64,000 nt of DNA from a virus. A program made the position numbers and the translations under genes. The DNA is taken from the IMG/VR virus record IMGVR_UViG_3300027843_000001; one strand, given 5' to 3'. Each line of letters opens with the position of its first letter. Position 1 is the first letter of the stretch. Positions 32,235 to 58,023 of the stretch are shown here, one piece after another. Below the pieces are notes generated by a model. The model was not told the origin of the DNA. It ran no database searches and saw only the letters and a list, made by a program, of their open reading frames with translations.

Positions 32235-32249
32235 GCTGTCTTGGTAATT
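32214..32249. repeat. Perfect 36-bp palindrome centred next to the stop codon
   Basis: aattaccaagacagctta|taagctgtcttggtaatt. Confidence 0.9.
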
Positions 32250-32328
32250 TAAGTTTTTGTTCGCAAATCCTTAAAATTTCGTGGTGTTTCATGCTGATAC
32301 TCAGATTGGTTTAGATATATAATAGTTA
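32248..32328 (+). mobile_element. Platform A: attI-like site plus integrase 5' stub (81 bp)
   Basis: Copy of 46042-46122; encodes MKHHEILRICEQKLK on the minus strand; ends at the GTTA junction of the first cassette. Confidence 0.85.
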
Positions 32329-32332
32329 TGCT

Positions 32333-32635
32333 TCATGCTAAAGAAGCCTCTGCGATAATTTGGTCTGATAATGAATAAACCATTCTTTTAGCAGTTAAAA
32401 AAAGACTTCCAAAATCATCGGGTTGCCTTTGTCTTAGTTTTGCAAAGAATTTCATATCGGTTTTTACTTTGTCCAAAAATTCAGTTATCCAACCAACAGA
32501 AGTATCTCCTTGTGGTGGTAAATTACCATCGTGCATTACCCTGTAAAGTTCCACGCTCATCCAACTGTCAGTTGATTCCCACACATTATGAGATTCATTT
32601 ATTGAGTATTTCTCAAATAATTCTTGTTTTGTCAT
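32333..32635 (-). CDS. Cassette A1 gene 2, hypothetical
   Basis: Probable start MTKQELFEKY directly after the upstream TAA. Confidence 0.7.
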   Translation of the reverse strand: MTKQELFEKYSINESHNVWESTDSWMSVELYRVMHDGNLPPQGDTSVGWITEFLDKVKTDMKFFAKLRQRQPDDFGSLFLTAKRMVYSLSDQIIAEASLA

Positions 32636-32636
32636 T

Positions 32637-32855
32637 TTAGTAAATGTTATTTTCAGGTGTTTCAAAATCTTGTCTTTGTTCCAATCTGTCAGCAGTATCA
32701 CGCAAATGTTTAATCATATCCTCTCTATTTGCCGTTGATATGTAATTTGCTACTGCTGGGTTTCCATAAGGAAAAACTAAAATAGTACAACCGAAATCTT
32801 TAGGTAAGAATTTAAGCACACTATCTGCCATTTTTTGCATTGCTATTTTACTCAT
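32637..32855 (-). CDS. Cassette A1 gene 1, hypothetical
   Basis: 72 aa with an AT-rich leader. Confidence 0.7.
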   Translation of the reverse strand: MSKIAMQKMADSVLKFLPKDFGCTILVFPYGNPAVANYISTANREDMIKHLRDTADRLEQRQDFETPENNIY

Positions 32856-32901
32856 TTATATTTAGTTTTAAATTTATAATTAATTGAAATAAAGCACGAA
32901 A

Positions 32902-33030
32902 GCATAACACAAGCTATAACCAATAAAGGTTTTAGTGGTTTATTTAGCGTTGTAGCTCGCATCCAGTTCAGTATCGTTTGATAGCGCATCGTACCGTAAT
33001 CCTTTACTGGTCATAGCTTCAACGTTATAA
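32902..33030 (+). mobile_element. attC-like site A1 (129 bp)
   Basis: GCATAAC-ACAAG-CTATAACCAATAAAGG ... CCTTTACTGGTCATAG-CTTCAAC-GTTATAA. Confidence 0.85.
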
Positions 33031-33101
33031 GCAAGGCGGGGAAGTGCTTCTATTTAAGGTCATCGGTAATTTGATGAAAAATAAAAGCCCCCGCCAGCAA
33101 A

Positions 33102-33551
33102 TTAAGGAATGACAATACAATCAATTCCAAGTTCAACAGCAATATCATATTCCTCTTTTACGCCTTCAATCATATTACCAATAAATATTGCTACACCGTT
33201 TGTTTTCTTAATGTTTTCTAACATTAGCCTTCTATCCCAAACCAAAGCATCGCCGTCTAATGTTGTGCCGTACCAGCAAACAATGTGTTCAGATACCTTT
33301 TCCAAAAAATCCCAAACAGTTAATGGAATATTTTTTTCAATCAAAGTCTTTTTTGGTAAAAAGCAATGATGCAAAACTGAACGAGGTTCATCGTATTCCA
33401 TTTGAACATCATCCATTTTGTAACTTCTTTCTGAAAAATCAAATTGCCCTTGGTATTTATCACTTTCAAGCCATTCGTTAAATTTTTTATCTACACTTTC
33501 AACCGTTTGGTTTTTAATTGTGAAATGCAGCGAAATATCATACTTTTTCAT
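33102..33551 (-). CDS. Cassette A2 gene, hypothetical
   Basis: Probable start MKKYDISL; cassette ends GTTATAAGC / GCTTATAAC are complementary. Confidence 0.7.
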   Translation of the reverse strand: MKKYDISLHFTIKNQTVESVDKKFNEWLESDKYQGQFDFSERSYKMDDVQMEYDEPRSVLHHCFLPKKTLIEKNIPLTVWDFLEKVSEHIVCWYGTTLDGDALVWDRRLMLENIKKTNGVAIFIGNMIEGVKEEYDIAVELGIDCIVIP

Positions 33552-33633
33552 ATCGTTATGGGTTTTACAACGCCCGCCCAAGGCTTTTATTTTTAGTGTT
33601 TCAATTCAAGTTTAGTAAGTAAAATCGCCCAGC

Positions 33634-33763
33634 TTATAACACGTGGTATAAAACAAAGCGGTTTTAGTGGTTCTCTAAGCGTTGTACCCCGTACCATTTT
33701 TCCCTGCATCGGGAAAATGGTTTCTCCGCTCTCCGCTTCGATTTCATACCACAGCCGTTAGCT
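33634..33763 (+). mobile_element. attC-like site A2 (130 bp)
   Basis: TTATAAC-ACGTG-GTATAAAACAAAGCGG ... CCGCTTCGATTTCATAC-CACAGCC-GTTAGCT. Confidence 0.85.
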
Positions 33764-33770
33764 GCCATTC

Positions 33771-33841
33771 CTCAACAAATAAAGGTATTAATACCCGAAT
33801 AAAAAATATGTTATGCAGCACATAAAATTGGTATATTTGCA
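33771..33841 (+). promoter_or_regulatory. Promoter block (ATGTT-N4-AGCA motif plus TATATTTG)
   Basis: Related to the blocks at 48851-48917 and 52491-52557; precedes the ORF at 33864. Confidence 0.65.
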
Positions 33842-33863
33842 TAAACATTAATCCATTAGAACT

Positions 33864-34724
33864 ATGGCAAATTTAGTTAAATTAACCGTTTTAGACGGTG
33901 GTCGTTTGACCAGAAGGACGGGCAGCATGTACTTTAACACTTCCCGTATTATTAGTTTCAAAACTGTAACAGCCGGGACTTTGCTGTTCTACAATGACAA
34001 TCGTAACGGGTGGCGGGAAAAGCCCGCTAAGATTTTAGTTAGTGACTCGTATGCCACCATAGCCGCTGCCGCTGCCATCTATGCCCCCGGCAACCGAATC
34101 TCGGTCAGCATCTTACAGAAAGGTAGCGACGTTTATGCTTCGGCTGTAACCGGTAGTCTTTGCGTGGATGACATCGTACTGGCCTATGCCAACCCCGGAA
34201 ACACTTCTACCCAGACTTATTTGCTCTTGCAGCATGGTATTTGGACTGCTGTAGAATACGTTATAAGTTCTTCCATTGCTGCTTTCTACAATGCTTCTAA
34301 AAAGATTACCGATGGCGTTAATACTTTAGTGGTTACTATTGGTAGCATTGGATCGACTACGGACGACTACAAATTCACTTCCGCCGCAAATACCACTGAG
34401 CAGGTTATTACCCTTACAGGGGCTATCCCCGCTTTTGCTCGTATTTTGGATTGGGCGGTTATCACAACAACAGCTTTCACCGGTATAACCGGCCTCACTA
34501 CCGCAGTCGGTACAACCTCGAGTGGAACGGAATTGGTTACAGATACCTCCAACCTTGCTGCGAATACCATTCTCAGCGGAGCTATAGCTGGCGCGCCGTA
34601 CCTTGCGGGTTCTGCTACTGCGCAAAATATTTTCATCAGTTGTAACCCGACCGGTAACTGGTCAACTATGACGGGAGGGCAGTTGAAGGTAGTCATAACT
34701 TATGTTGATAGGGCTAATGCCTGA
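33864..34724 (+). CDS. Putative virion protein
   Basis: 286 aa, T/A/G-rich beta-type C-terminal domain; followed by a terminator. Confidence 0.6.
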   Translation: MANLVKLTVLDGGRLTRRTGSMYFNTSRIISFKTVTAGTLLFYNDNRNGWREKPAKILVSDSYATIAAAAAIYAPGNRISVSILQKGSDVYASAVTGSLCVDDIVLAYANPGNTSTQTYLLLQHGIWTAVEYVISSSIAAFYNASKKITDGVNTLVVTIGSIGSTTDDYKFTSAANTTEQVITLTGAIPAFARILDWAVITTTAFTGITGLTTAVGTTSSGTELVTDTSNLAANTILSGAIAGAPYLAGSATAQNIFISCNPTGNWSTMTGGQLKVVITYVDRANA

Positions 34725-34736
34725 TAACGCTTAACA

Positions 34737-34762
34737 GAAGGAGGCCGCCAACCTCCTTCTTC
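34737..34762 (+). terminator. Intrinsic terminator
   Basis: gaaggagg-ccgccaa-cctccttc. Confidence 0.65.
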
Positions 34763-34784
34763 ATTTCATAAAACACACGAACTT

Positions 34785-35468
34785 ATGGAGCTGACTAAAA
34801 AAGATATTAACGTATCCAAGCTAAAGTATGACCCTTTTGACCCGAAGACAGTCAAAGCTTTGCAGGAGTACGAGGAGTTTAAGCAGGATTTTGGGGTGGA
34901 TAAGCAAAAGTTGTTTGCGTACATAATTTTGATGTACGACATGGGTAGCGACTTACGCCATAAAATAGAATGGCTTAATCCCCGTAAAAAGCAAGCCGCG
35001 GAGCTTGCTAATTTTCCTAAAGCCGACAGGGGCAGCACATTTGAACCTAATTATGAGAATATCATCATAGGGGGCAACAAAAAAGCCAACTCGGCCATAT
35101 CCCGGTACATACGTCTATTTGCAAATCCAAAATACACGTTACTCATATATTATCAAACCATTTTAGCATCGGAGTTTGATAACCTTAATGACCGTAGCGC
35201 AAAATCTAGTGACTACAATAAGATACTCGGCAATATAAAAGCTTGCGATGCCGGCATAGAGAACTGTACTAGCGCATTATTTGGTGGTGATGAAGAAATA
35301 TCAAGCATAAAACTAGCCCTTTACGAAGACGCTGAGAGGGAAAACCTCGGCCTAAGACCAGAAGACGTAGCCTTAGACCTGAGTATCCTCGACGACATAA
35401 TAGCCAACAGTAATCCTTACGGCAAAGGTTATAAGCCAAGAGAATTAAAGTTTAAAGGGGATAAGTAG
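34785..35468 (+). CDS. Hypothetical protein, possible small terminase
   Basis: Helical 227 aa protein immediately upstream of TerL. Confidence 0.5.
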   Translation: MELTKKDINVSKLKYDPFDPKTVKALQEYEEFKQDFGVDKQKLFAYIILMYDMGSDLRHKIEWLNPRKKQAAELANFPKADRGSTFEPNYENIIIGGNKKANSAISRYIRLFANPKYTLLIYYQTILASEFDNLNDRSAKSSDYNKILGNIKACDAGIENCTSALFGGDEEISSIKLALYEDAERENLGLRPEDVALDLSILDDIIANSNPYGKGYKPRELKFKGDK

Positions 35469-35469
35469 T

Positions 35470-37785
35470 ATGAAATATAATTATCTACCCGCTGATGAGT
35501 CATTTGTGGTTAATAATGGGCATCCTAAAGGGATTGACCGGGATTCCTATCTAAAGCCAATCCGCGTATTACTCCCTGAACCGCCTCCTTTAGAACTTAT
35601 TGAAGGATACGGCCTCCCCCCGAAAGAACAGAGATGGAGACCCCCAAAAATGCCGGATAAATTAACCTTGCTGCAAAAAAAGATAATAAGGGATTTCAGC
35701 GATGACGATAAGCAGAAAAGCTATTACGTTGTTGTTGACAGGATATGGGAAGAAATAGAAAATAACCAGGAAGACTATAAGGACGAAATAGAATGGATAA
35801 AGTACCAATGGTATTATAGAACGCAAGGGTATTGGTTCTTTAACAACGGTAAGCCTACATATATAACCGGATGGCATTGGTTCTTTTTATCCTATTGGCA
35901 CTTGGAGGGGGTTAAATTACCGGAATACAGGGATAGGACTAGGCGTACTTTTCTGTTCTGGGATTACATATCTAAAACAAGGGAGTCTTTCAAGTATCTG
36001 GATGCTGATGGCAACGCCATATCCAATGACGACGGGACTTACGATATGATAGAAATGCCAGTACGTACCTTTTATGGCGTTGGTCAGGGCAAAGGCCGGC
36101 GGGAGGGCGTGTCCAATATGTCGCAAGCTGCCCAATTTGAGACCTGCTCACGGGAACAGGGAGCCATAGGCGCCATCTTTTCAATGAACGCTACGAGTGC
36201 ATACAAGTTGTTTTACGAAAAAACCGTACAAGCTTTTTCTAAGATACCTTTCTTTTTCCTGCCTAAGTGGGATGGCTACTTTAAGCAATCTACTTCTATC
36301 GACTTCGAAAATCCAAAAAATGTTACTTCTGGTTTGGAACTAAAAAGCGCAATATCTTATGCGCAGTCAGCTTTTGGCGATGCTTATGATGGCGGTAAAC
36401 TCCGGTTCGCCATATTTGATGAAAGTGGAAAGACTAAGGACTGCGATATAACAAAAAGATGGGATACACATAAGAGGGGGTTAGCCCTTGGTGAAGGTGC
36501 CAGCATATTTGGCTTTTGTATTCACCCATCTACTACCGAAGATATGGAACTTAAAGGTGGGGCTAATTATCAGAAATTTCTTATTGACTCGGATTTTTAT
36601 AACCGAAACCCTGTAAACGGGCAGACAAAAACGGGATGCGCTAATATCTTTCTACCTTTCTATGATGGTATGGAGAGTTTTATTGACCCTTTCGGTAACT
36701 CCATAATAGATGAACCAACGGATGAGCAAATAAAAACTGGTTTTAAGTTCCGGACAGGCTCCTACCAATTTCTTAAATCGGGCCGGGACAGACTCCTAAA
36801 CAGCAAAGACCCCAGAGATATGGTCAAATACAGGGAAATGGTAGTCAAGCAGCCCTTCAACTTTATGGAGATGTTCTCGCTGTCTTCCGGCAACCCTATT
36901 TTCAACCTTGACATAGTTAATAAGCGTTGCTCAGAGTTGGCCACAATGCCAGACCCTTATATACGTGGTAATTTTGAGTTCACGGGCGAAGAATTTAATA
37001 GTGACGTTAGGTTCATACCTTGCTCTGATGGCCGTTGTGAGGTATCACTCGTGCTATCCCCTGAGCAAGCCAATTTGCGGCATAAAGAGTTCATATTAGA
37101 CAGGTTCACTGGTGAACAACGCGAAGTATGGGCACCAAATTTACAGCATATTGGTGTCGTAGGCGTTGACCCTTATAAGTCAAGCGGGGGTGATAAAAAG
37201 ATGGCGGCCAAGACTGGTTACTATGCGTCAGATGGAGGCATAGCAGCTTTTAAGATAGGCGACAAATACGAACTTAGTGAGGAAGCATTATCATTCGAAT
37301 ACCCCAGGTTCGTTGTCGTTTACCGCAACAGGCCACTGAGTAAAATATTTTATAAAGATGCGATAGCTATTGCGCAATATTACGGGTTTATGATATATCC
37401 GGAAACCAACGTTGATCAGTTTCTTGATTTTGTATCTGACCATAACTACGACGGGTATTTCCTGTACGACTGGGACGAGAATAAGATGGACTTCAAGCAG
37501 AAGCCGGGGGTGTTTCAATTAACAGCCAGCAAAGAGATAGGCTGGGACGAAATACGTAATTATATAGAGTTCCGGGGTCATAAGGAACGGCATTCGTCTC
37601 TACTTAAAGAGTTTTCTCAACTTAGTACTTTCGAGGATTTAGGGCGCAATGACATGGCCGCTGCCGCATTGTGCGCGTTACTTGGAGCGCGAGGTTTGTC
37701 CCGACGATACAAAAGGGCTGAGATGGTAGAAGAAACAAACGGCTATGACGATTGGGCTTCTATGGATGATGACTTTATGCTGTAA
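35470..37785 (+). CDS. terL: Terminase large subunit (crAss-like type)
   Basis: GKGRREGVS ATPase motif, Walker B FAIFDESGK, nuclease motifs VGVDPY and IYPETN. Confidence 0.9.
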   Translation: MKYNYLPADESFVVNNGHPKGIDRDSYLKPIRVLLPEPPPLELIEGYGLPPKEQRWRPPKMPDKLTLLQKKIIRDFSDDDKQKSYYVVVDRIWEEIENNQEDYKDEIEWIKYQWYYRTQGYWFFNNGKPTYITGWHWFFLSYWHLEGVKLPEYRDRTRRTFLFWDYISKTRESFKYLDADGNAISNDDGTYDMIEMPVRTFYGVGQGKGRREGVSNMSQAAQFETCSREQGAIGAIFSMNATSAYKLFYEKTVQAFSKIPFFFLPKWDGYFKQSTSIDFENPKNVTSGLELKSAISYAQSAFGDAYDGGKLRFAIFDESGKTKDCDITKRWDTHKRGLALGEGASIFGFCIHPSTTEDMELKGGANYQKFLIDSDFYNRNPVNGQTKTGCANIFLPFYDGMESFIDPFGNSIIDEPTDEQIKTGFKFRTGSYQFLKSGRDRLLNSKDPRDMVKYREMVVKQPFNFMEMFSLSSGNPIFNLDIVNKRCSELATMPDPYIRGNFEFTGEEFNSDVRFIPCSDGRCEVSLVLSPEQANLRHKEFILDRFTGEQREVWAPNLQHIGVVGVDPYKSSGGDKKMAAKTGYYASDGGIAAFKIGDKYELSEEALSFEYPRFVVVYRNRPLSKIFYKDAIAIAQYYGFMIYPETNVDQFLDFVSDHNYDGYFLYDWDENKMDFKQKPGVFQLTASKEIGWDEIRNYIEFRGHKERHSSLLKEFSQLSTFEDLGRNDMAAAALCALLGARGLSRRYKRAEMVEETNGYDDWASMDDDFML

Positions 37786-37789
37786 AAAA

Positions 37790-37821
37790 ATCCCAAGTGA
37801 GCATCACTGCTGACTTGGGAT
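37790..37821. terminator. Bidirectional terminator hairpin
   Basis: atcccaagt ... acttgggat between convergent genes. Confidence 0.7.
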
Positions 37822-37894
37822 AACCAATAGTGTTGAAATGAAATGTAATTCTGAGAACAAAGTAAACTAATTTATGGTGAATAAAAAATATGTT

Positions 37895-38839
37895 TTACGG
37901 CATAGATTTTCGAGCCTTCATTAGACCTTCCACTCTTTTACGATAATCTTCGGGCTGCTTAGATAAGTCCACTTGCTCTACGTATTTAGATTTTATAGAA
38001 GCAGGCAACTTGTTAAACCCTTTCCATTTTTCGTATTCCGCTTCGTCTATGTCCTTAGTTGAACCGTCGTGATACTTTATTCTAAACCTCCTACCGGGTT
38101 TGTTCATACGGGTTTCCCCCTTATCATTAACAGAATAATAACTGTTGTCGTATGAGGGTTCTACACTCTCCACTTGTCGATAATAGCTTTCTGGACTTTT
38201 TTCCGATTCGGTACTCGTAAATTTTTGGGGCTTGTAATCGATAGCGGTGCCAGATATTATAATTGGATTACCCTGCGCGTCAATTTTATATTTTTCATAT
38301 TTACCCGTGGATTTGTTCTTTATGTAGGGGCCTTCCGCAAATTTTATCACGTCACTTTTATCATAATTGCCTTTCCCAAAAACGCCCGGCTGAGTACTAC
38401 TGTACTTACTCTCTAACTGCTTATATGTCGGATCATCAGACGCTATTTTGCGAAGCGATGGGGTCTCGGGGTCTAAGTAATAGCCTAATTTTTTGCCGAA
38501 GGTCTGGTTATACCGATCAATATATGATCGAGACAGGTTGGTAACTTTGGGCGCTTCATCCTCAGACGAGGGTCGAAACAGCACATGAGCATATCTATTT
38601 ATACTTTCGGGATCTCTGTATAAATTAGGATTAGATGCACCACCCGCTTCATTTATTTCCTTCGCCGCCTCATAGGACATAGATCCCTCTGGACGTGTAA
38701 TTAAAGATGCCTTATAAGCTGCGTCCCCCTTTAGCTTTGGGATCGGGTTCCGGTTAAAATAATCAGCAAATTGCGGATTCTTGTTTACAAAAGCCGCTAC
38801 CTCAGAATCGGAATACTCGTTTTTTTTATCTTCTGGCAT
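37895..38839 (-). CDS. Hypothetical protein
   Basis: 314 aa ORF following the portal gene. Confidence 0.7.
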   Translation of the reverse strand: MPEDKKNEYSDSEVAAFVNKNPQFADYFNRNPIPKLKGDAAYKASLITRPEGSMSYEAAKEINEAGGASNPNLYRDPESINRYAHVLFRPSSEDEAPKVTNLSRSYIDRYNQTFGKKLGYYLDPETPSLRKIASDDPTYKQLESKYSSTQPGVFGKGNYDKSDVIKFAEGPYIKNKSTGKYEKYKIDAQGNPIIISGTAIDYKPQKFTSTESEKSPESYYRQVESVEPSYDNSYYSVNDKGETRMNKPGRRFRIKYHDGSTKDIDEAEYEKWKGFNKLPASIKSKYVEQVDLSKQPEDYRKRVEGLMKARKSMP

Positions 38840-38843
38840 GACG

Positions 38844-41141: not shown

Positions 41142-41163
41142 AAGGAATCAATAATTTATATCG

Positions 41164-41223
41164 CAAATGTATGATTTTTAACACAAAAATATATGCTCTA
41201 CAACATATAAAATACTATTTTTG
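41164..41223. promoter_or_regulatory. Divergent promoters for portal and scaffold, with a palindromic motif between them
   Basis: TACATTTG (minus, 41164-41171), TATTTTTG (plus, 41216-41223), atatgctctacaacatat at 41191-41208. Confidence 0.6.
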
Positions 41224-41251
41224 TGCTGTAAAACACATATAACACACGGAT

Positions 41252-48324: not shown

Positions 48325-48328
48325 GCAA

Positions 48329-48587: not shown

Positions 48588-48690
48588 GCACAACAAGCGG
48601 TCATAAAACAAAGCGGGTTAAGTGCAATTTACAAGTTCATTAACTCGCTCGTAGTTCGGTATCGGCGGATAGTTTCACAGCCCGTTCACC
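48588..48690 (+). mobile_element. Truncated attC-like site B4 (left arm only)
   Basis: GCACAAC-AAGCG-GTCATAAAACAAAGCGGG; complementarity stops after CCCG at about 48684. Confidence 0.65.
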
Positions 48691-48850: not shown

Positions 48851-48917
48851 CAACAAATTAACTTATTAATCCTCATATAAAAAATATGTTAGAAAGCATA
48901 AAAATTATACCTTTGCA
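48851..48917 (+). promoter_or_regulatory. 67-bp promoter block, repeated at 52491-52557
   Basis: caacaaattaact...atataaaaaatatgttagaaagcataaaaattaTACCTTTGca. Confidence 0.75.
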
Positions 48918-48938
48918 ATACACAATATTATAGGCGCT

Positions 48939-49688: not shown

Positions 49689-50296
49689 CAAAAAACCAAA
49701 TCATAGAGCTGTATAGGCTACAAGTATTGGGGCAGTCATTAACCGATGACCAATCATTCAAAGCGGATGAGAGGGTTATTGAGCTAATGATAACGGCTGC
49801 TTTGAACGAAGTCTATTTTAAGATATTCAAGAAAGACCCTTCAAACTTTGACAGGTACTGTAAACTTTATAAGAATGTAGAGATAAAATACGATTCCGAC
49901 ATCGACCAATACTATTCCGACCTCCCCGCAAAAGTTATTCAGTATCCGATATTAGGCGATGGCGTTTGGAGCATAGGAACCATGCAAGGCTCTACCGTAG
50001 AGTTCGTACCCATATCGCAGGATGACGCAGAGGGCATGACCGGATCAGAATCCTTTCTCATTGACGACGTGGTAAAATATGCCGTTGTTGGCAACCAAGT
50101 CTATTACTTCGGTATAGACCCCGTGAATCCCATAACAGCAGTTAAGATGTTCCTTGTCGTCGAATTTACTGAATGGGGCGCTACGGAAAATGTGCCTATG
50201 CCCTCCGGGCAGGACTTCGATATTATGCAATTAGTTTTGCAGGGATACCGTGCTAAGGATAAGGACAAAGCGAATAATCAAAATAGTATAGCCTAA
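49685..50296 (+). CDS. Tail ring / connector protein
   Basis: 203 aa, translationally coupled within the structural operon. Confidence 0.55.
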   Translation: MTKNQIIELYRLQVLGQSLTDDQSFKADERVIELMITAALNEVYFKIFKKDPSNFDRYCKLYKNVEIKYDSDIDQYYSDLPAKVIQYPILGDGVWSIGTMQGSTVEFVPISQDDAEGMTGSESFLIDDVVKYAVVGNQVYYFGIDPVNPITAVKMFLVVEFTEWGATENVPMPSGQDFDIMQLVLQGYRAKDKDKANNQNSIA

Positions 50297-51006
50297 TGGA
50301 TACCCCCGGAGTACAGACAGTAAAACGCATAGTAACAGACATTGTTTTCTTTTGCCAACTTGGTAAGGATAAGTGGAATTTTGTGTATAAGTTGGTGATT
50401 GATGCCATAAGGGAAATACACATGTTCCACACCGATGAATACAAGGTGGTGAAGGTAAATGTCGATTCCGCACTTAATACGATAGACTGGCCGGATGACT
50501 ATCTGGGTTTTGTGTTCTTAGGGATTCCCCTTAATGGCACTATCTGGACGCTGACAAAGGATAACGACTTAATAACGACTACTACCCTTGTCAATGGGCA
50601 GGAAACCTTAGATAGCGAAGCGGGGGAGGGCGTAACAATTAGTAAACGAACCCGACCCGGATACGCAGTTAAGGGTGGGGTCAATAAATTTTACTACAAA
50701 GAAGACCCCGCCAACAGGCGCATATTCATAAACGGAATTAACCCAGCCAATGTCTTATTAGGGTACGTCAGCTCCGGCGTTACTGACGCAGGAACGTTAG
50801 TACCGATGAAGTACAAAAGCCTTATCGAGAACTATGTCCGGAGCAAATTATTTCTTCTTGGTGACAAACCAGATACCAACAGCTCCGAATATTTTCTTCG
50901 CCTGTATTATGATGAAGTGTCAAAACTCAAAATATTTGAAAGCCCAACCTTAGACGAGATTTATGATGGGCTATCGGAGATATTTACCGGAGTTATGACT
51001 AAATGA
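50296..51006 (+). CDS. Tail ring / tubular protein
   Basis: 236 aa; RRIFIN...VLLGYVSSG...VPMKYKSLIENYV pattern. Confidence 0.6.
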   Translation: MDTPGVQTVKRIVTDIVFFCQLGKDKWNFVYKLVIDAIREIHMFHTDEYKVVKVNVDSALNTIDWPDDYLGFVFLGIPLNGTIWTLTKDNDLITTTTLVNGQETLDSEAGEGVTISKRTRPGYAVKGGVNKFYYKEDPANRRIFINGINPANVLLGYVSSGVTDAGTLVPMKYKSLIENYVRSKLFLLGDKPDTNSSEYFLRLYYDEVSKLKIFESPTLDEIYDGLSEIFTGVMTK

Positions 51007-51017
51007 CGTAGAAAGTA

Positions 51018-51098
51018 TTTAAGTTTTTGTTCGCAAATCTTTAAAATTTCGTAGCGTTTCGTGCTGATACTTAGATTGGTTTAGATATGTAATAGTTA
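51018..51098 (+). mobile_element. Platform C: attI-like site plus integrase stub (start codon ATG changed to ACG)
   Basis: 81-bp copy, 6 mismatches to platform A. Confidence 0.85.
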
Positions 51099-51121
51099 TA
51101 TGCAAGGCTAAGACCGTGCAT

Positions 51122-51952
51122 TTAATCAACATTTGTGGGTTCATCCGTAAAAGAAAAAAGCCCACGCTCTTTTGCTTTTTCAAAGCAATTAGGGTTTATG
51201 TCGCAACCTATAAAGTTTCGTTTCAAATCTTTGCATACTTCGGCAGTTGTAAAACTTCCAGAATAAAAGTCTGCAACTAAATCTCCTTCATTGCTACTTG
51301 CTTTAATAATTCGCTCAATTAATGCTTTTGGTTTTTGGGTATCATATCCAAGTCTTTCAGAGTTAGTCGGCCCCAAATTATTCAATTCCCAAACATCATC
51401 AATAGGTGTTGAATCTTGTATTTTATAAACAACATCACCATTTTCGTCCCTTTTCATTACCTTTTTACCATCTTTCACATCTACTTTATTTTTCTTTCTT
51501 GGTGTCTCTAATGGCAATCTTAATTCATTAAATATTATTTTGTCAGTTTTGCCATAAAATATAAGTATATCGTGGTTTTTAGCAAACGCCTTTTGCTTTA
51601 TACTCCATTTATTGTAACTCCAAATAACCTCATTCACAAAATTATCGTATCCAAATATGTCATCCATTATACACCTAATCCAATGGTTTATTTTGGTATC
51701 CATTTGTAAATAAATACTTCCTGTTGGTTTCAATATTCGGTGCATTTCTTTTATTCGTGGTATATAGTGGCTTTCAATTTCACTTCTTATGGGTTTCAAA
51801 TCTTGGTAGTCTTTAAACTTCCTGCCAGTTCCATAAAGTATATCACAATAAATTAAGTCTATCGTGTTATCTTTAATTTCTGCCATCAATTCTAAATTGT
51901 CGCAAATTCTAAGGTCTAAAAAACCATCCCCATTTTTTTCTTTTACTATCAT
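51122..51952 (-). CDS. Cassette C1 gene: DNA methyltransferase (N6-A/N4-C, beta-type order)
   Basis: IYCDILYGTG, LKPTGSIY, NEVIW, YDTQKPKALIERII and ADFYSGSFTT motifs. Confidence 0.9.
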   Translation of the reverse strand: MIVKEKNGDGFLDLRICDNLELMAEIKDNTIDLIYCDILYGTGRKFKDYQDLKPIRSEIESHYIPRIKEMHRILKPTGSIYLQMDTKINHWIRCIMDDIFGYDNFVNEVIWSYNKWSIKQKAFAKNHDILIFYGKTDKIIFNELRLPLETPRKKNKVDVKDGKKVMKRDENGDVVYKIQDSTPIDDVWELNNLGPTNSERLGYDTQKPKALIERIIKASSNEGDLVADFYSGSFTTAEVCKDLKRNFIGCDINPNCFEKAKERGLFSFTDEPTNVD

Positions 51953-51993: not shown

Positions 51994-52093
51994 ATATAAC
52001 ACGTTGTATATGTCAGTTTTGCCAATTGGCTTTCGTGCTTTGAATAGGAATGTGTGCGTGGCAAAACCGAACACATACAACCATCCGTTAGCG
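51994..52093 (+). mobile_element. attC-like site C1 (100 bp)
   Basis: ATATAAC-ACGTT-GTATATGTCAGTTTTGCC ... GGCAAAACCGAACACATAC-AACCATCC-GTTAGCG. Confidence 0.85.
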
Positions 52094-52402
52094 GGCATTG
52101 TAATGAACACAGCCGAACCAACTTTTAGTTGAATATTCAAATCCTAATCCATCATGAACACATATAGGATATGATTGCATTCCAGTTTTTTCAGTATCAG
52201 GGTATTCTTCTTTTGGATATGTTTTCCCCGTTATTTCAGTTCCATTTTCAATCCATTTTCCAGAAAGTATTAAGCATTCGCCCATATCTTTTGAATATTC
52301 GGATTCTTCTTTTTTATTCCAATTTTTACATGATAAACAACGACCCGCTAACACACGGTTAGCGCAATTGCCGTTTTTGTGGTTATTCGTAGTTTCTACC
52401 AT
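52088..52402 (-). CDS. Cassette C2 gene, Cys-containing hypothetical
   Basis: ATG inside the attC C2 loop; CLSCKNW and FGCVHY motifs; stop codon in the junction. Confidence 0.7.
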   Translation of the reverse strand: MVETTNNHKNGNCANRVLAGRCLSCKNWNKKEESEYSKDMGECLILSGKWIENGTEITGKTYPKEEYPDTEKTGMQSYPICVHDGLGFEYSTKSWFGCVHYNAR

Positions 52403-52476
52403 TTTATTAAGTTTTTAGTAAATTGATAATTAAGTTCTTTTTAGTCGGCAACTTCGCTAACCGTCAGCCGTTATCG
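52346..52476 (+). mobile_element. attC-like site C2 (131 bp)
   Basis: CGCTAAC-ACACG-GTTAGCGCAATTGCCG ... CGGCAACTTCGCTAAC-CGTCAGCC-GTTATCG. Confidence 0.85.
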
Positions 52477-52490
52477 CTCCTGTAATTACT

Positions 52491-52557
52491 CAACAAATTA
52501 ACTCGTTAATACACATATAAAAAATATGTTAGAAAGCATAAAAATTATACCTTTGCA
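52491..52557 (+). promoter_or_regulatory. 67-bp promoter block, repeat of 48851-48917
   Basis: Nearly identical copy; TACCTTTG at 52548-52555. Confidence 0.75.
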
Positions 52558-52559
52558 GT

Positions 52560-53240
52560 ATGAACTTAGACTCTATACTAAATACGGTCAGAACCATTAT
52601 TAACCAAGTAAGCCCTTCCTTACAGCTTACGGAGGATATGTTTTCGGACGTGTGCCAATTGGTCAACCTGGATTACTTCAAGTTGTGGTGCGGACTTCCG
52701 GAAGACTGGGCACCGGGGCAGCCGGTTTCCCGAAGGGGCTGGCAGGTGTCGAGCCAAAACACGGAAGCACTCAAGACGTTCTTAGTTGACGAGGCTACGT
52801 ACTCTGTCACCATAGCCGGTAAGTTGACATACCCCGCCAACTTTGTCCATATTGATCTTATAAAGTTCAACTACCAAGGCACTGAAATATCGGTCACAGA
52901 AAAGGATCATCAGGAAATAGGGAACTTACTTAAAAGCCCTATTCTTGCACCTACTTCGCAATACCCCATTTTCACCTATTACGGGGCTTACCTTCAATTT
53001 TATCCTAAGGATTTAGCCAATGTAACGATGAGCTACTTCCGGCTTCCTACGACCCCGAAATATGTCATAAAGGAGGAGAACGGGGTCAACGTATACGACC
53101 CTGATAATTCAGTTCAATTCGAATGGCCGGAGGCTTACCACAATGACTTGGTTAAAATGATTCTCTCCTATTTGGGCATAAGCTCAAAGGATGTCAATGT
53201 GGCTAATTACGCAGAAAGTGTTAAGGCTAAAGGGGCTTAA
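52560..53240 (+). CDS. Tail ring / connector protein, paralog of 48939-49688
   Basis: Shared N- and C-terminal motifs, and YFRLPTTP vs YLKLPSIP. Confidence 0.65.
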   Translation: MNLDSILNTVRTIINQVSPSLQLTEDMFSDVCQLVNLDYFKLWCGLPEDWAPGQPVSRRGWQVSSQNTEALKTFLVDEATYSVTIAGKLTYPANFVHIDLIKFNYQGTEISVTEKDHQEIGNLLKSPILAPTSQYPIFTYYGAYLQFYPKDLANVTMSYFRLPTTPKYVIKEENGVNVYDPDNSVQFEWPEAYHNDLVKMILSYLGISSKDVNVANYAESVKAKGA

Positions 53241-53522: not shown

Positions 53523-53714
53523 TTATAGCGCCATAGGTGGATCAGTAACTTTGTATATGCAATACCCGTCGGCATCCGCCCTTTTTGCCGTTGGGTTCAT
53601 TATGTACTGGCGCCAGAGTTTATTGATTGTGTCCTCATCCGTTTGTACCCTTACGCCGTTGGCGTCTTCGTACCATTGATCCCGGCCTTTTTCACCAAAA
53701 ATATGTACTTCCAT
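53523..53714 (-). CDS. Hypothetical protein
   Basis: 63 aa; starts 5 nt from the platform D stub. Confidence 0.6.
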   Translation of the reverse strand: MEVHIFGEKGRDQWYEDANGVRVQTDEDTINKLWRQYIMNPTAKRADADGYCIYKVTDPPMAL

Positions 53715-53718: not shown

Positions 53719-53799
53719 TTTAAGTTTTTGTTCGCAAATCCTTAAAATTTCGTAGTGTTTCATGCTGATACTCAGATCGGTTTAGATATATAATAGTTA
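53719..53799 (+). mobile_element. Platform D: attI-like site plus integrase stub
   Basis: 81 bp, 2 mismatches to platform A. Confidence 0.88.
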
Positions 53800-53806
53800 T
53801 ATGAAA

Positions 53807-53992
53807 TTATTCAATCCACCGCCTAACAACTTCAAACTCATTGTTATTAGTCCAGCATTTCAAATAATCTCTTTCTAACAATATTTCAACTAATGAACTT
53901 ATTTCAAAGTCATCTAAATCAACTGTAATTTCAAACTGCTTATATTTTAAGCTTCCTGTATTTACTTTTATTTCATAATGTATGTTAATCAT
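53807..53992 (-). CDS. Cassette D1 gene, hypothetical
   Basis: Probable start MINIHY; cassette ends GTTATATG / CATATAAC. Confidence 0.6.
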   Translation of the reverse strand: MINIHYEIKVNTGSLKYKQFEITVDLDDFEISSLVEILLERDYLKCWTNNNEFEVVRRWIE

Positions 53993-54011
53993 ATATTTAA
54001 ATATAAACCTC

Positions 54012-54142
54012 ATATAACATCGGCTCATATTTCATAAGGGTTTAAGTGCGATGTGTAACTTTTCCCCTCGTAGGTAATTATTTGTAATTTGACAGGCTTG
54101 TGCTTCGATTACCCTTACGAAACATAGCCGTGTTCGTTAGCC
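54012..54142 (+). mobile_element. attC-like site D1 (131 bp)
   Basis: ATATAAC-ATCGG-CTCATATTTCATAAGGG ... CCCTTACGAAACATAG-CCGTGTTC-GTTAGCC. Confidence 0.88.
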
Positions 54143-54850
54143 ACCATATACAAACAGCCTTTCGACAGTTTTGTAAGTTAATGTGGTATTCATTGAATTT
54201 GTTACTTCTTTCGACCAAACACAAATAAAGTCATTTGGTGCTTGATATTCGGAAATAAATACTTTATGTCCTTGATTTGTCATATCTCTACACCATCCCC
54301 AAAATTTATTATGGTTAAAGTTTTTTGAAGTTGCATATTGTTTTGTGTTTTGGTACGGAATGTCGCAATAAATTATAGAATTTTCAAATAGTTCAATGTC
54401 AGAATAGTTTCCACTTATAAATATTGCACCTTTTAAAAATTCAACTTGTTTTAATGTATTTCTAATTTGTTCATCAACATAATCCCTTGTTGCTGTTTTA
54501 CCTGAATATCCACCATCGAAAAACCTACCATTAAAAGAAGCCATCCACCCAATCCACCCAATCATAAAATCGTCAAATTCTATGTTAGTCCCATTATTAT
54601 ATTCTGATCTTGCTTTTGAATATAACTCTTTCGATATTTCCATTGGTTTATCTCTATTTTCTTGCAATCCTTTCCACATTGCAATCAAATATTTGTTTTT
54701 ATCAATAGCAATCCTATTTCCAGAAACTTTGTCAAATGTTCCTAAACCACCACAAAACGGCTCAATATAGTATTGATTATCTTTTCTGTCTTTTAATATA
54801 ATCGGAAGTATTTCTTTTGCTATCCGATTTTTTGAACCCATGTATTTCAT
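54137..54850 (-). CDS. Cassette D2 gene: Dam-like (D12 class) DNA adenine methyltransferase
   Basis: YMGSKNRIAK, YIEPFCGG, IYCDIPY and VFISEY motifs; stop codon in the junction. Confidence 0.9.
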   Translation of the reverse strand: MKYMGSKNRIAKEILPIILKDRKDNQYYIEPFCGGLGTFDKVSGNRIAIDKNKYLIAMWKGLQENRDKPMEISKELYSKARSEYNNGTNIEFDDFMIGWIGWMASFNGRFFDGGYSGKTATRDYVDEQIRNTLKQVEFLKGAIFISGNYSDIELFENSIIYCDIPYQNTKQYATSKNFNHNKFWGWCRDMTNQGHKVFISEYQAPNDFICVWSKEVTNSMNTTLTYKTVERLFVYGG

Positions 54851-54883
54851 TTATCTATATTTTAATTTATTACTAAATACGGT

Positions 54884-55014
54884 GGCTAACAATGTGTAGC
54901 ACCAATAAGGGTTTTACTGCAAATTTTAAGCGTTGTAGTCCGCTTGTTGGTCGGTATAGTTTGATAGGTTTGAACTCCGCAATCCCTTACTTGTGCTACA
55001 CTCGTCCGTTATAA
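54884..55014 (+). mobile_element. attC-like site D2 (131 bp)
   Basis: GGCTAAC-AATGT-GTAGCACCAATAAGGG ... CCCTTACTTGTGCTAC-ACTCGTCC-GTTATAA. Confidence 0.88.
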
Positions 55015-55060
55015 CCAATGCAAGAACGCTCCTTGGATAGTTCCTGCATTAGATTAAAGT

Positions 55061-55540
55061 TTACTCTTTCAAAAGAAGTTTAGCAACATCTTCTTTTAAC
55101 ATTCCGTTTTCGTGCAATTTTGCTACAATTTGAGAAGCAAAAAGCATATCGTAACGGTCTTTAAGCTCTTTTGATATTTTATCAGAAGTTTTTGTCGTTT
55201 GAGAGTTTAAAAAATCTCTCAATTTGTTTTCGCTTAATTGCGTTCTTTCCAATTCTTCTGTTATCCATTCGGAAATAGAAATCATGTCATTGGAATTGTA
55301 ACGCTTTTTAACTTTGGCGTTTACAACAAGCTCATTTAAGGCACTTATTATAAATTGCTCCTTTTGCTTTTCAATTTCCGCAATCACGGCACTATTAAAT
55401 TCAGCACCTATTTTTGCTTTCCAATCGGCTAAAATTTGTTGCCTTACATTATAGGCAATTGCACTTTTAATTTGCTCCGAAAAAGAGCTTTCGTCTTCTG
55501 AATAAAAATCAGATAAATCTACTGTTACATTAATTTTCAT
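55061..55540 (-). CDS. Cassette D3 gene, helical hypothetical
   Basis: 159 aa; cassette ends GTTATAACCA / TGGTTATAAC. Confidence 0.75.
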   Translation of the reverse strand: MKINVTVDLSDFYSEDESSFSEQIKSAIAYNVRQQILADWKAKIGAEFNSAVIAEIEKQKEQFIISALNELVVNAKVKKRYNSNDMISISEWITEELERTQLSENKLRDFLNSQTTKTSDKISKELKDRYDMLFASQIVAKLHENGMLKEDVAKLLLKE

Positions 55541-55586
55541 TTCTTTAAGTATTTAGTTATTAATAATTTAAAATAAAATGCACTGG

Positions 55587-55717
55587 TTATAACACACGCT
55601 CATACGTAACGTTGGTTTTAGTGCCTATTTTATGCGGTCTGCTTCTAATTTAGTTCGGTAACGTGGGATAAGTAACCGCTTCGAAATCCCACGCTACGCA
55701 TAGCGGAAACGTTAAAT
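55587..55717 (+). mobile_element. attC-like site D3 (131 bp)
   Basis: TTATAAC-ACACG-CTCATACGTAACGTTGG ... CCACGCTACGCATAG-CGGAAAC-GTTAAAT. Confidence 0.85.
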
Positions 55718-55869
55718 ACACAATCACGCATTACATCTCTACCCGGAGCAATAACTAATAATGTTTTCATAATTTAAAATTTACTGTATTTTGATAAATA
55801 TGTTTTTCGATTTCCGATACTTTTCACAGAAACCAACAAATCGGGTTTTATAATATTCTGCTGTTTAGT

Positions 55870-56097
55870 TTAATTCTCCATATACCTTTTCTGATGCGCA
55901 ATTAAGTTGAGCATACCCGCAGAATTTTTTTCTGCTTCCGAAAATAATTCTGTTAGTGTTTTGTTATACACCTTATTTTGCTTTTCAAAATCCCTACTGA
56001 CTTTTCTGTTTGCAAAGAATATAGCCACTGCTGCTAATATGCCAACGGCATCTATGACAAGTGCTGTATAAGCTAATATGTCTATTACGTTTTTCAT
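55870..56097 (-). CDS. Small membrane protein
   Basis: N-terminal TM segment. Confidence 0.6.
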   Translation of the reverse strand: MKNVIDILAYTALVIDAVGILAAVAIFFANRKVSRDFEKQNKVYNKTLTELFSEAEKNSAGMLNLIAHQKRYMEN

Positions 56098-56306
56098 GCT
56101 TTCTCAAAATAAATTCTTAAGTCATAATGAATCCCGACATAATCCCAATTAAAGAAGCAAGTCTCTTTTGGTATAGGGTACTCTTGGAATCCGTAAACAG
56201 CCAAATCGCGTTTCAAATGGTCAAAGTTAAGGTAATCCTTAGATAACTCCCGGCCATTGCCGTATCGCTTTGTATCCAGTTTGGCATAATAAAAATTTTT
56301 CTCCAT
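56094..56306 (-). CDS. Hypothetical protein
   Basis: 70 aa; AAAGCCATG start context. Confidence 0.6.
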   Translation of the reverse strand: MEKNFYYAKLDTKRYGNGRELSKDYLNFDHLKRDLAVYGFQEYPIPKETCFFNWDYVGIHYDLRIYFEKA

Positions 56307-56333
56307 GGCTTTATTTATAATTTGTTTGCGTTA

Positions 56334-56690
56334 TTACAGCATTTGACCTTCGTGAGCGTTACCTAGTATAACATAACGTTCTGATTCAAATGAGTCGTTT
56401 AAGAATTGTTGGCCCCTAGATATTTCCGGATGCGGGTTACCAATAATTTTTATCCGGTTAGCAATTAATACGTAGCCCCTCCACTATATGAGGTATATAA
56501 CTGTCCCAGTCACAAGGTATTCTTTGTAAGGGTCTCTGCTACGCCCATCATACCCATCATAGTAATGATTATTCATTATTAGGGTCTCTGTAATAGCTGT
56601 GTAATCCCCCTCCCGCATAAGTTGGCCGTTCTTATCCTCGAAGGATGTTAAAAACAGGTGCCTACTGCTATCTAATTCTTTTTTCTCCAT
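56334..56690 (-). pseudogene. YopX-like gene interrupted by an in-frame TAG (56484-56486)
   Basis: FEDKNGQLMREGD before the TAG; the frame stays open for 49 codons after it and ends VILGNAHEGQML (YopX C-terminal IGNIHE-like). Confidence 0.7.
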
Positions 56691-56698
56691 GACTTTAT

Positions 56699-56938
56699 TT
56701 ATCTGTATTTTATTTTCAACATTAAAACATAATTCTCTACGCTCTTAAGCAAATCTGATTCGCTGCCCGGTACAAACTGCTTACCGTGCAAAGAACTCAA
56801 TGCTATTCTGTAGTACCTGAGGGCTTTTATTTCATCCCTCAGGCCGGTACCATTATCCGACAATGCTTTTTTATCTAATTGGGTTATGAACTTTGTCAGA
56901 TCATTTATGAATTTTTCTTTGTAGGTCATAGGTTCCAA
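56699..56938 (-). CDS. Hypothetical protein
   Basis: 79 aa ORF in the early operon. Confidence 0.6.
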   Translation of the reverse strand: MEPMTYKEKFINDLTKFITQLDKKALSDNGTGLRDEIKALRYYRIALSSLHGKQFVPGSESDLLKSVENYVLMLKIKYR

Positions 56939-57129
56939 CTTTTTATTTCTTTGACCATCCTTACGGAATCTTTACGGAATACCATAATAAAGGAATCCTT
57001 TTTCAACTTGTTGCATGACCCCTCAAGATAGCCATTTGTATAGATATACATTACGTTCGTTAATGCTAAATTCGATATTCGCGTACAGGATACGAGCGAT
57101 AAGGCAGCCATTGCTATAATCGTTTTCAT
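56926..57129 (-). CDS. Small lipoprotein-like protein
   Basis: Probable start MKTIIAMAALSLVSC. Confidence 0.55.
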   Translation of the reverse strand: MKTIIAMAALSLVSCTRISNLALTNVMYIYTNGYLEGSCNKLKKDSFIMVFRKDSVRMVKEIKSWNL

Positions 57130-57130
57130 A

Positions 57131-57325
57131 CTACCTACAATTAAATTCATCGTTTATGGGCATTGCGAAGCAAGTGGAAAACCTGCCCTCCCAGAACCGG
57201 CCATTGTGCGAAAACTTAGGCGGCTTTTGGGGCTTATCGGTAGAGGCAACATAGTGATGACCCTTTTCATCAATGGCCATTAGTGTCTGGCCAGATTTTG
57301 ATAACTCAAAAGTAAGTTTTTCCAT
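57131..57325 (-). CDS. Hypothetical protein
   Basis: 64 aa, directly after the platform E stub. Confidence 0.6.
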   Translation of the reverse strand: MEKLTFELSKSGQTLMAIDEKGHHYVASTDKPQKPPKFSHNGRFWEGRFSTCFAMPINDEFNCR

Positions 57326-57348
57326 GACGTTTTTATTTTAGTTTGTTG

Positions 57349-57410
57349 ATCCTTAAATTTTCGTGGTGTTTCATGCTGATACGCAGATTGGTTTAGATAT
57401 ATAATAGTTA
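57349..57410 (+). mobile_element. Platform E: attI-like site plus shortened integrase stub
   Basis: atccttaaattttcgtggtgtttcatgctgatacgcagattggtttagatatataataGTTA. Confidence 0.82.
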
Positions 57411-57417
57411 TGTGGCA

Positions 57418-57852
57418 TTAAAAGATCCACGCTTTGATAATTTCGTAAAGATTTAATTTTAAGTGATACGAATTAATTATTACGAACACGCCAAATACTA
57501 ATCCTACAACCGAATTTAACCAGTGTAATACCGTATATGCTGGGCTAAATTTAAACAGCTTACTTATTGGAGCTATTACAATAAAATTAAAAGCAATAAT
57601 TGAAACAAAGGCAACCCAATTAAATGTCAATAGTCCTGCAAACATCCATAAAGCAAATATTAAACTTGGCAGTCCTCGACTAATTAAAATGTCTTTATAA
57701 TCTTGTGGGTATTCATCCCACTTTTTGCCTTTATTTTGTTTCGTGAGTTCTTTGAATTTCTTTGATTTTTCAGTGTATTCAACTGGGCTTATTAGCCAAA
57801 GAACTTCATGTATTATAAAGCAAATTCCGATAAAATAAAAAATGTGTTTCAT
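57418..57852 (-). CDS. Cassette E1 gene, multi-pass membrane protein
   Basis: Probable start MKHIFYF; about four hydrophobic segments; cassette ends GTTATGTGGC / GCCACATAAC. Confidence 0.75.
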   Translation of the reverse strand: MKHIFYFIGICFIIHEVLWLISPVEYTEKSKKFKELTKQNKGKKWDEYPQDYKDILISRGLPSLIFALWMFAGLLTFNWVAFVSIIAFNFIVIAPISKLFKFSPAYTVLHWLNSVVGLVFGVFVIINSYHLKLNLYEIIKAWIF

Positions 57853-57893
57853 TGTTATAATTTTTAAGTTATTAATATTCAATAATTAACGCC

Positions 57894-58023
57894 ACATAAC
57901 ACGCGGTCATACGTAACTGGGACTTAATCAGTATGCGAGGCATGTAGCTCGTATTGTCGTTTGGTGTAAGTTGATAGTTCGTAGCTTCGATTACCTCAGC
58001 TACGCATACCGCAATCGTTAGCC
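57894..58023 (+). mobile_element. attC-like site E1 (130 bp)
   Basis: ACATAAC-ACGCG-GTCATACGTAACTGGG ... CTCAGCTACGCATAC-CGCAATC-GTTAGCC. Confidence 0.85.

Follow-up and report, generated by a model that had tools for sequence, protein, structure and literature searches.

The DNA analysed here is a stretch of 64,000 nt (the window) of IMG/VR virus record IMGVR_UViG_3300027843_000001, a genome recovered from a wetland metagenome as a single contig of 71,116 bp and rated 100% complete by CheckV. The region from 32248 to 58019 holds five arrays of short gene cassettes (A to E), each of which begins at a copy of the same ~78-nt sequence, here called a platform, that resembles the attI insertion site of integrons. 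Each cassette carries one or two open reading frames (ORFs) and terminates in a site resembling an integron attC hairpin. A gene for a Xer-like tyrosine recombinase of 266 aa (45286-46086, minus strand) is joined to the platform of array B. On the sequence and comparative evidence set out below, we regard it as likely that these parts form a phage-borne, integron-like system for the site-specific capture of gene cassettes, comprising the recombinase, five attI sites and 12 cassettes.

The platform is present in five copies, and a BLAST search of the complete 71,116-bp genome found no others. The copies are 92–97% identical to copy A. All five terminate in AATAG|TTA, beyond which repeat finding and alignment show the five loci to be unrelated, and the first cassette of each array begins at this G|TTA. 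The attI core of the platform reads …GATATATAATAG|TTA; in copy C a single upstream base of the core is changed, ATGTAATAG in place of ATATAATAG. Some 45 nt away lies a 28-bp inverted repeat that overlaps codons 8–16 of the recombinase gene. All platforms are on the minus strand. Platform B (46040-46119) is the attI joined to the intact recombinase gene, whose start codon and codons 1–16 lie inside it; the platform ends 32 nt upstream of that start codon. Platforms A, C, D and E are non-coding copies of attI and the 5′ end of the gene. Platform A (32248-32325) retains the attI core and a copy of codons 1–16, and follows the terminator palindrome of the muzzle-protein gene. Platform C (51018-51095), directly after the structural gene 50296-51006, comprises the attI core and a recombinase 5′ stub with its start codon mutated to ACG. 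Platform D (53719-53796) likewise consists of core and 5′ stub, with the minus-strand ORF 53523-53714 starting just beyond it. In platform E (57330-57407) the attI core is intact and the inverted-repeat module partly decayed; here too a minus-strand ORF (57131-57325) starts just beyond.

Twelve cassettes are distributed over the five arrays: two in A, four in B, two in C, three in D and one in E. All cassette ORFs lie on the minus (bottom) strand and are read towards attI, and each attC is upstream of its ORF. This is not the canonical polarity of integron cassettes, in which the ORF is on the top strand, the attC is downstream and the promoter is on the attI side. In the coordinates that follow, bits are scores against a covariance model (CM) of the attC sites. 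In array A, cassette A1 (32325-33026) holds ORFs 32333-32701 and 32637-32855 and an attC at 32906-33026 (114.5 bits), and A2 (33024-33759) holds ORF 33102-33581 and an attC at 33638-33759 (94.3 bits). Array B opens with B1 (46119-46488), whose ORF (46120-46410) has its start codon within the attC (46369-46488; 96.3 bits). B2 (46486-47285) follows, with ORF 46498-47166 and an attC at 47162-47285 (113.6 bits). B3 (47283-48320), with ORFs 47339-47665 and 47668-48180 and a short attC at 48238-48320 (26.7 bits), is possibly a fusion of two cassettes. B4 (48318-48725) contains ORF 48329-48541 and a degenerate terminal attC (about 48588-48725; 30.1 bits). Array C consists of C1 (51095-52089), with ORF 51122-51952 and a short attC at 51998-52089, and C2 (52087-52472), whose ORF (52088-52402) again starts within the attC (52350-52472; 109.6 bits). 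Array D comprises D1 (53796-54138; ORF 53807-54028; attC 54016-54138, 108.9 bits), D2 (54136-55010; ORF 54137-54850; attC 54888-55010, 112 bits) and D3 (55008-55713; ORF 55061-55540; attC 55591-55713, 113.8 bits). The single cassette of array E, E1 (57407-58019), holds ORF 57418-57882 and an attC at 57898-58019 (100 bits).

Among the 14 cassette ORFs, Pfam gave no match at all for nine and weak, below-cut-off matches for three more. These include a nucleotidyltransferase-like match of the B2 ORF (PolyA_pol head domain, E = 0.004) and a Colicin_V-family match of the E1 ORF. C1 encodes an N6/N4 DNA methyltransferase (PF01555, 3.2e-47) and D2 a D12-class (Dam-like) adenine DNA methyltransferase (PF02086, 5.6e-14). 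The recognisable cargo is two orphan DNA methyltransferases, which probably guard against host restriction; the other cargo genes are small and have no informative match. Between arrays D and E lie six small minus-strand ORFs (55870-57325) that could be old cassettes with decayed hairpins. A weak covariance-model match (18 bits, minus strand) was also seen at 55744-55816, just past array D.

The start of each cassette is the reverse complement of its own end. The perfect run is 9 nt in A1, A2, C1, C2 and D1 and 10 nt in B1, B2, D2, D3 and E1, so that 10 of the 12 cassettes have runs of 9–10 nt; it is 8 nt in B4 and 6 nt in B3. In a 12 × 12 matrix of starts against ends, own ends averaged a 9.1-nt perfect run and 11.9 matches out of 15, compared with 4.5 nt and 7.2 out of 15 for all other pairs, and the observed total of complementarity was reached in none of 100,000 random pairings. 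In B1, B2, D2, D3 and E1 the match continues past the perfect run: a plus-strand A stands opposite a C, followed by three or four further matches. This A/C position corresponds to a G·T wobble on the minus strand. The terminal inverted repeats of a transposon or a miniature inverted-repeat transposable element (MITE) were ruled out as an explanation, as the repeat differs in every cassette beyond GTTA.

The spacer between AAC and GTT of the attC-like sites is 114–118 nt long in nine sites (128–132 nt with the cores), 77 nt in B3 and 86 nt in C1. The twelfth site, the degenerate one of B4, forms no hairpin (z = −0.05). For the nine full-length sites, RNAalifold returned a 14-pair stem in which 11 of the 14 pairs show compensatory changes; the consensus includes a bulge and an internal loop, and one stem pair is invariant as G·T, on the minus strand only. 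With DNA parameters and the sites in circular form, the minus-strand fold is more stable than that of the plus strand in 11 of 11 cases. As in attC, AAC/GTT boxes on the outside and an unpaired spacer surround an inner stem, which has an extrahelical base, and a variable loop. The sites therefore share with integron attC the imperfect hairpin, the AAC/GTT cores, the extrahelical base, the variable loop and the bias towards the bottom strand. An earlier note on this DNA, made from the letters and their ORFs, had described five arrays starting at one attI-like sequence, the same cassette numbers per array, cassette starts complementary to their own ends and not to those of neighbours, and 11 complete hairpins, nine of them 128–132 bp long. 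All of these observations were reproduced.

The recombinase matches Pfam Phage_integrase (2.3e-35) and Phage_int_SAM_4, and is the sole tyrosine recombinase of the complete genome (a single PF00589 match). The contexts of the catalytic motifs (GLRVSE, GKGRKDR, HILRHS, AGHS and IYTH) are present. Against NCBIfam, all scores fell below the curated cut-offs: 170 bits against 220 for XerA_Arch, 134 against 330 for XerD and 133 against 335 for XerC. Two integron-integrase models also scored below their cut-offs, TIGR02249 (integrase_gron) with 139 bits against 265, in a match split into two pieces, and PRK15417 with 103 bits against 435. The enzyme does not group with the Xer resolvases (XerC, XerD or XerA) on these scores, and its gene lies beside phage cassette arrays, not a chromosomal terminus. 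It aligns end to end with archaeal XerA structures. In the alignment with the Vibrio integron integrase VchIntIA (2a3v), 35 recombinase residues lie between aligned blocks where the integrase has 83, and the additional domain specific to IntI, with its I2 helix, is missing. The earlier note had assigned the whole system to one integrase: the presence of a single tyrosine recombinase agrees with this, but the enzyme is not strictly an integron integrase, since the IntI-specific insertion is lacking.

In IMG/VR, 47 viral loci encode homologues 53–70% identical to the recombinase; metagenomes contain thousands more, which are labelled simply XerD or integrase. We built the covariance model from the nine long attC sites of this phage; the earlier note had proposed such a model. 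It gave 149 matches in the 47 recombinase-bearing viral loci, nearly all upstream of the recombinase and all on the same strand. The inverted polarity, with ORFs on the folding strand and attC upstream, holds for all 149. In most of the ~45 homologous viral genes, a core AAC|TAT(T/C)ATATAT (recombinase strand) lies 30–50 nt upstream of the start codon. Its core recurs in this position, and the repeated platform is a genuine attI-type site. The exact degenerate pattern of the platform had no match in the viral contigs; the full platform sequence is lineage-specific, and only the core is common to homologous loci.

The family extends to much larger phages and to other cargo-bearing contigs. Two complete jumbo phages with terminase genes, G010 (362 kb) and G011 (310 kb, with terminal repeats), reached through loci L033 and L009, encode recombinases of the same family. 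Their arrays have up to nine model matches, and one G011 site lies 16 kb from the main array. On a 37-kb phage-like contig with genes for a DnaB helicase and a NinG-like protein (L140), two DNA methyltransferase genes at 5474-8862 are each preceded by a model-matching attC on the sense strand, in the same inverted polarity. The model also gave 132 matches beside more distant homologues in genomes of Flavobacteriaceae and other Bacteroidota. Chromosomal Flavobacteriaceae homologues are 30–45% identical to the phage recombinase and align without the long insertion, and their attC sites match the phage model at up to 74 bits. These sites lie downstream of the gene on the opposite strand, and the cassette ORFs were on the top strand in the three loci inspected. 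The phage and chromosomal types therefore differ in cassette polarity. Long attC arrays downstream of a co-oriented recombinase were seen on the chromosomes of Polaribacter and other Flavobacteriaceae (L066, L074 and L099; L049-L114).

A related phage, G006 (complete, 76 kb), shares its set of structural genes with this one at 28–54% protein identity and encodes a recombinase 70% identical to the one described here. It has five array loci, three with full platforms and two with the core only. In its two extra full platforms there is no start codon any more and the sequence linking the core to the 28-bp inverted repeat is decayed, yet both modules are kept. Retention of core and inverted repeat suggests that they act as DNA elements, for instance in accessory binding of the recombinase. 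A divergent viral contig, G003, has two platforms, the second of which includes the gene stub and lies 23 kb from its recombinase, beside a second attC cluster. The arrangement of several platforms in one phage, which the earlier note had put forward as undescribed as far as its author had seen, thus recurs in G006 and G003. Another relative, G007, retains attC sites without any recombinase gene. Cassette ends in the relatives behave as in this phage: in 12 of the 13 cassettes tested in G006 and G009, a match of 9–10 nt to the cassette's own end is followed by the platform or the next attC.

Comparison of cassette content between relatives, which the earlier note had also suggested, located E1 and C1 elsewhere with junctions at the AAC/GTT core. 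E1 is 91% identical at the nucleotide level over 520 nt to G006 57872-58391. The match sets in at the attI core, with no relation between the flanking sequences, and the core proteins of the two phages are only 28–54% identical. G009 has a cassette 74% identical to the C1 methyltransferase cassette, and single attC sites also have close counterparts: those of B3 and D3 are each 92% identical to a G009 site, and that of C2 is 82% identical to a G007 site. C1 is present at 90–99% identity in biogas, wastewater and landfill metagenomes, where contigs match it up to 51095 on one side and 52090 on the other, and none in these samples covers the phage backbone. Three independent contigs of ~1 kb, with C1 at 93% identity, join it exactly at AAC| to two sequences that differ from each other and from the attI of this phage. 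As copies of C1 and E1 elsewhere are far more similar than the backbone, recent transfer is indicated; in silico, cassettes move as units bounded by core sites, as integron cassettes do. Many of the closest homologues of the C1 methyltransferase (P0121, P0126, P0127, P0137 and others) are on contigs of ~1.0 kb, the length of the cassette, which is the expected output of an assembly graph when one cassette has several contexts within a sample. The attC loop of E1 (57898-58019) has diverged strongly from G006 58369-58501, with the cassette and the stem bases ~91% conserved.

By analogy with integrons, the recombinase would bind double-stranded attI together with the folded minus (‘bottom’) strand of attC, and strand exchange would take place within the shared AAC/GTT core. 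A cassette would leave as a circle, by attC × attC or attI × attC recombination, and could re-enter at any platform; all five platforms may be served in trans by the one recombinase, as the earlier note had proposed, which saw in this a genome-wide gene-shuffling system. The outcome of such a cycle would be that the first 9–10 nt of each cassette are the reverse complement of its last 9–10 nt. The scheme builds on what is observed in this phage and its relatives: the anatomy, the covariation of the hairpins, the linkage of recombinase, attI and attC across the family, and cassettes common to several genomes with junctions at the core. In its action the system very probably resembles an integron. 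Under the current definition it falls outside the integron family, since it has neither the IntI insertion nor the cassette polarity of that family.

Several observations weigh against cassette capture by this recombinase, and they have to be set beside the alternatives. The genome is metagenome-assembled, with blocks flanked by repeats of 70–80 nt, and the five-platform layout and rearranged backbone might be assembly errors joined at these short repeats. We consider this extremely unlikely. In an independent second wetland sample (X2), contigs at least 99% identical bridge platforms A, C and E (50900-51886 across platform C and 57303-57686 across platform E) and also cross the junction between array C, the promoter block described below and the next structural gene, which argues that the multi-copy layout is not an artefact; platform D is not bridged by X2. 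The platform copies differ by a few bases and are hence distinguishable, and G006 and G003 show the same kind of layout. The X2 contigs speak on the other side as well. Their cassette content is the same as in this phage, and neither excision circles nor cassette-skipping joints were seen among them, although rare circles could escape detection in assembled contigs. Further points against cassette capture are the recombinase itself, which is without ~48 residues of the IntI-specific, I2-containing insertion, the weak end matches of B3 and B4 together with the degenerate B4 site, and the modest folding z-scores of single sites (−0.05 to −3.9), which leave covariation as the main evidence for structure. 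A second copy of the locus's own platform was also absent within ~10 kb of the recombinase in ~45 other viral loci, so that multiple platforms are not general to the recombinase family.

The arrays and platforms might instead be relics of past recombination, or have been acquired passively from chromosomal arrays of the host, with the recombinase repurposed, for instance for the resolution of genome dimers or for lysogeny, and no cassette moving in this phage any longer. The unchanged cassette content in X2 at ≥99% identity, the weak ends of B3 and B4, the degenerate B4 site, the decayed inverted repeat of platform E and the attC sites left without a recombinase gene in G007 would all suit a fossil. 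We nevertheless judge this improbable, since 10 of the 12 cassettes retain perfect end matches, the platforms are still nearly identical, the contexts of the catalytic motifs are present, and C1 and E1 are far closer to their copies elsewhere than the backbone is. A role of the hairpins mainly as RNA or regulatory elements (5′-leaders, insulators or processing sites), spread by homologous recombination in the manner of T4-type promoter/stem-loop cassettes, has in its favour that the folding strand is the mRNA sense strand, that the conserved wobble works equally as G·U, and that each hairpin stands upstream of its ORF, with the B1 and C2 ORFs starting inside it. It would leave unexplained the own-end complementarity over 220–960 nt that is absent with neighbours, the junctions exactly at AAC| in other genomes, and the arrays beside a tyrosine recombinase in >100 loci, and we give it very little credence as the main function; the hairpins may have a second, RNA-level role besides recombination. 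Two other candidates were set aside. A lysogeny integrase with multiple attP sites fits hairpin arrays poorly, and pdif-type Xer modules are 28-bp double-stranded sites in alternating orientation, which are absent here.

Integrons are regarded as devices of bacteria and archaea, with the IntI insertion as their defining feature. The phage system shares many features with the classical integrons of class 1 and of Vibrio. In both, attI abuts the 5′ end of the tyrosine recombinase gene and cassettes are inserted at G|TT. In both, attC hairpins have AAC/GTT cores, an internal loop, a bulged base and a variable loop, and the bottom strand folds better; and in both, the start of a cassette is complementary to the start of its own attC and cassettes are common to genomes as units. 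Unlike in classical integrons, the recombinase lacks the insertion that carries the I2 helix, the cassette genes are on the folding (bottom) strand with the hairpin upstream of the gene, and their transcription runs towards attI and the recombinase gene. Five attI sites in one 71-kb replicon, a phage as carrier and arrays that interrupt a structural operon are further differences. Recombinase and cassette genes are co-directed here, as they are in integrons with an inverted integrase (the Treponema denticola type) and in the Flavobacteriaceae arrays. In the Flavobacteriaceae loci, however, the array is downstream of the recombinase and the ORFs are opposite the folding strand, whereas in the phage type the array is upstream and the ORFs are on the folding strand.

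A Xer-type enzyme without the IntI insertion is also at work in the CTX phage, where XerCD recombines the folded single-stranded attP, a hairpin of ~150 nt, with double-stranded dif. This precedent, in which a hairpin is likewise paired with a double-stranded site, makes the proposed chemistry plausible. It differs in that a whole phage genome is integrated by host enzymes, with no cassettes, arrays or attI platform. Published work regards the IntI insertion as what made the recombination of single-stranded attC possible (PMC7790495).

The closest published parallel is the clusters of attC sites lacking integrases (CALINs) in virulent phages, among them Polaribacter phage P12002L with two DNA methyltransferases (Qi et al. 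2023, PMC9892861). In the virulent phages shown there, the sites number two or three and neither a cognate recombinase nor an attI is reported; IntI1 of class 1 integrons recombined some of the sites (PMC9892861). As in the present case, attC-type sites occur in lytic-type environmental phages, a Bacteroidota phage included, with methyltransferase cargo. This phage, by contrast, encodes its own dedicated recombinase and has five copies of a conserved attI, and comparisons provide evidence that its cassettes are exchanged. No recombinase gene adjoins arrays A, C, D or E, and the sole recombinase would fail a test for IntI; the CALIN label would therefore formally fit this phage, yet it would hide the cognate enzyme and attI. 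Integron cassettes have also been reported to insert at non-classical genomic sites (bioRxiv 10.1101/2022.09.11.507474). This resembles the present case in that cassettes lie at several places of a genome outside a single attI, and differs in that the sites are short, degenerate and unrelated to attI, where here one ~78-nt platform with recombinase codons recurs at five loci. A search of full-text literature, with subscription journals mostly outside its reach, returned no phage system with a cognate insertion-less recombinase, several attI sites or inverted cassettes. What is new compared with published phage attC clusters is that the phage has a recombinase dedicated to the sites, that attI is present five times, and the orientation of the cassettes.

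The arrays also coincide with changes in the phage backbone. The structural module is collinear in G006, G007 and G009 and is split into blocks here. Relative to these three phages (for G006, loci L126-L129), the order of the blocks in window positions 12578-53240 is largely reversed with their orientation kept. Genes that are adjacent in G006 (the adaptor, three genes and the muzzle protein) are separated by platforms and arrays, in reversed order. One block (9078-11780) has changed both place and orientation, and the stretch 37895-41141 is inverted locally. Four backbone breakpoints coincide with platforms A–D. A single promoter-like block recurs in front of all three relocated blocks that follow arrays A, B and C. 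The first copy (33773-33842, plus strand), which contains TAnnTTTG, begins 16 nt beyond the final attC core of array A, where the structural genes of the plus strand resume. Two further copies on the plus strand, at 48851-48920 and 52491-52560 just after arrays B and C, are 93% identical to each other. TAnnTTTG is an element that we take to be typical of Bacteroidota promoters, and the repeated block is a predicted promoter. The promoter-like repeat also concerns 37879-37902. Since the collinear module of the relatives is cut here at breakpoints matching platforms A–D, one may speculate that recombination between the last attC of an array and the next attI would excise a late promoter, structural genes and a platform as an attI-bearing circle. 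Essential blocks would then be mega-cassettes and the structural operon would be reshuffled by the recombinase, an idea that we find rather unlikely at present.

The host is most likely a Bacteroidota bacterium, because of the TAnnTTTG promoter-like elements and because the closest bacterial recombinases are almost all from Flavobacteriaceae or other Bacteroidota. Other products of the genome include a family-A DNA polymerase, an Enc34-type single-strand-binding protein, a DUF2800/PD-(D/E)XK nuclease and an SU10-type adaptor, and one protein weakly matches the C-terminal domain of the crAss-virus muzzle protein. Within the window, Rfam, which does not include the curated attC model used by IntegronFinder, gave no match, and ARAGORN no tRNA genes. 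A megablast search of positions 32000-48000 against 50,697 phage records found nothing, and no relatives were found for the protein encoded at 33864-34724. The 794-aa ORF at 13957-16341 (plus strand) has a LAGLIDADG_3 match and a weak intein-splicing match in the middle of the protein. Its homologues in G006, G007 and G009 are ~1.28 kb (roughly 427 aa) long, with 293 aa aligned, which suggests that an intein is inserted in this phage's copy. A repeated unit of ~57 nt spans both ends of the contig, outside the window, and suggests a circular or terminally redundant genome whose assembly broke off inside a tandem repeat.

A survey with IntegronFinder 2.0 recorded a single complete integron in Bacteroidetes proper, in Salinibacter ruber (10.1101/2022.02.28.482270), and the arrays of the Flavobacteriaceae would add to that phylum an integron-like family. 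The consistent link between an insertion-less, Xer-like enzyme and attC-type arrays leads one to ask whether hairpin recombination requires the I2 helix. Phages, jumbo phages of 310–362 kb included, appear to own such systems rather than to carry stray attC sites, and to hold accessory genes such as DNA methyltransferases in cassettes. At least one methyltransferase cassette circulates as a unit in wastewater, biogas and landfill communities and in this wetland phage. Several near-identical platforms in one small genome could explain the origin of hyperplastic phage regions.

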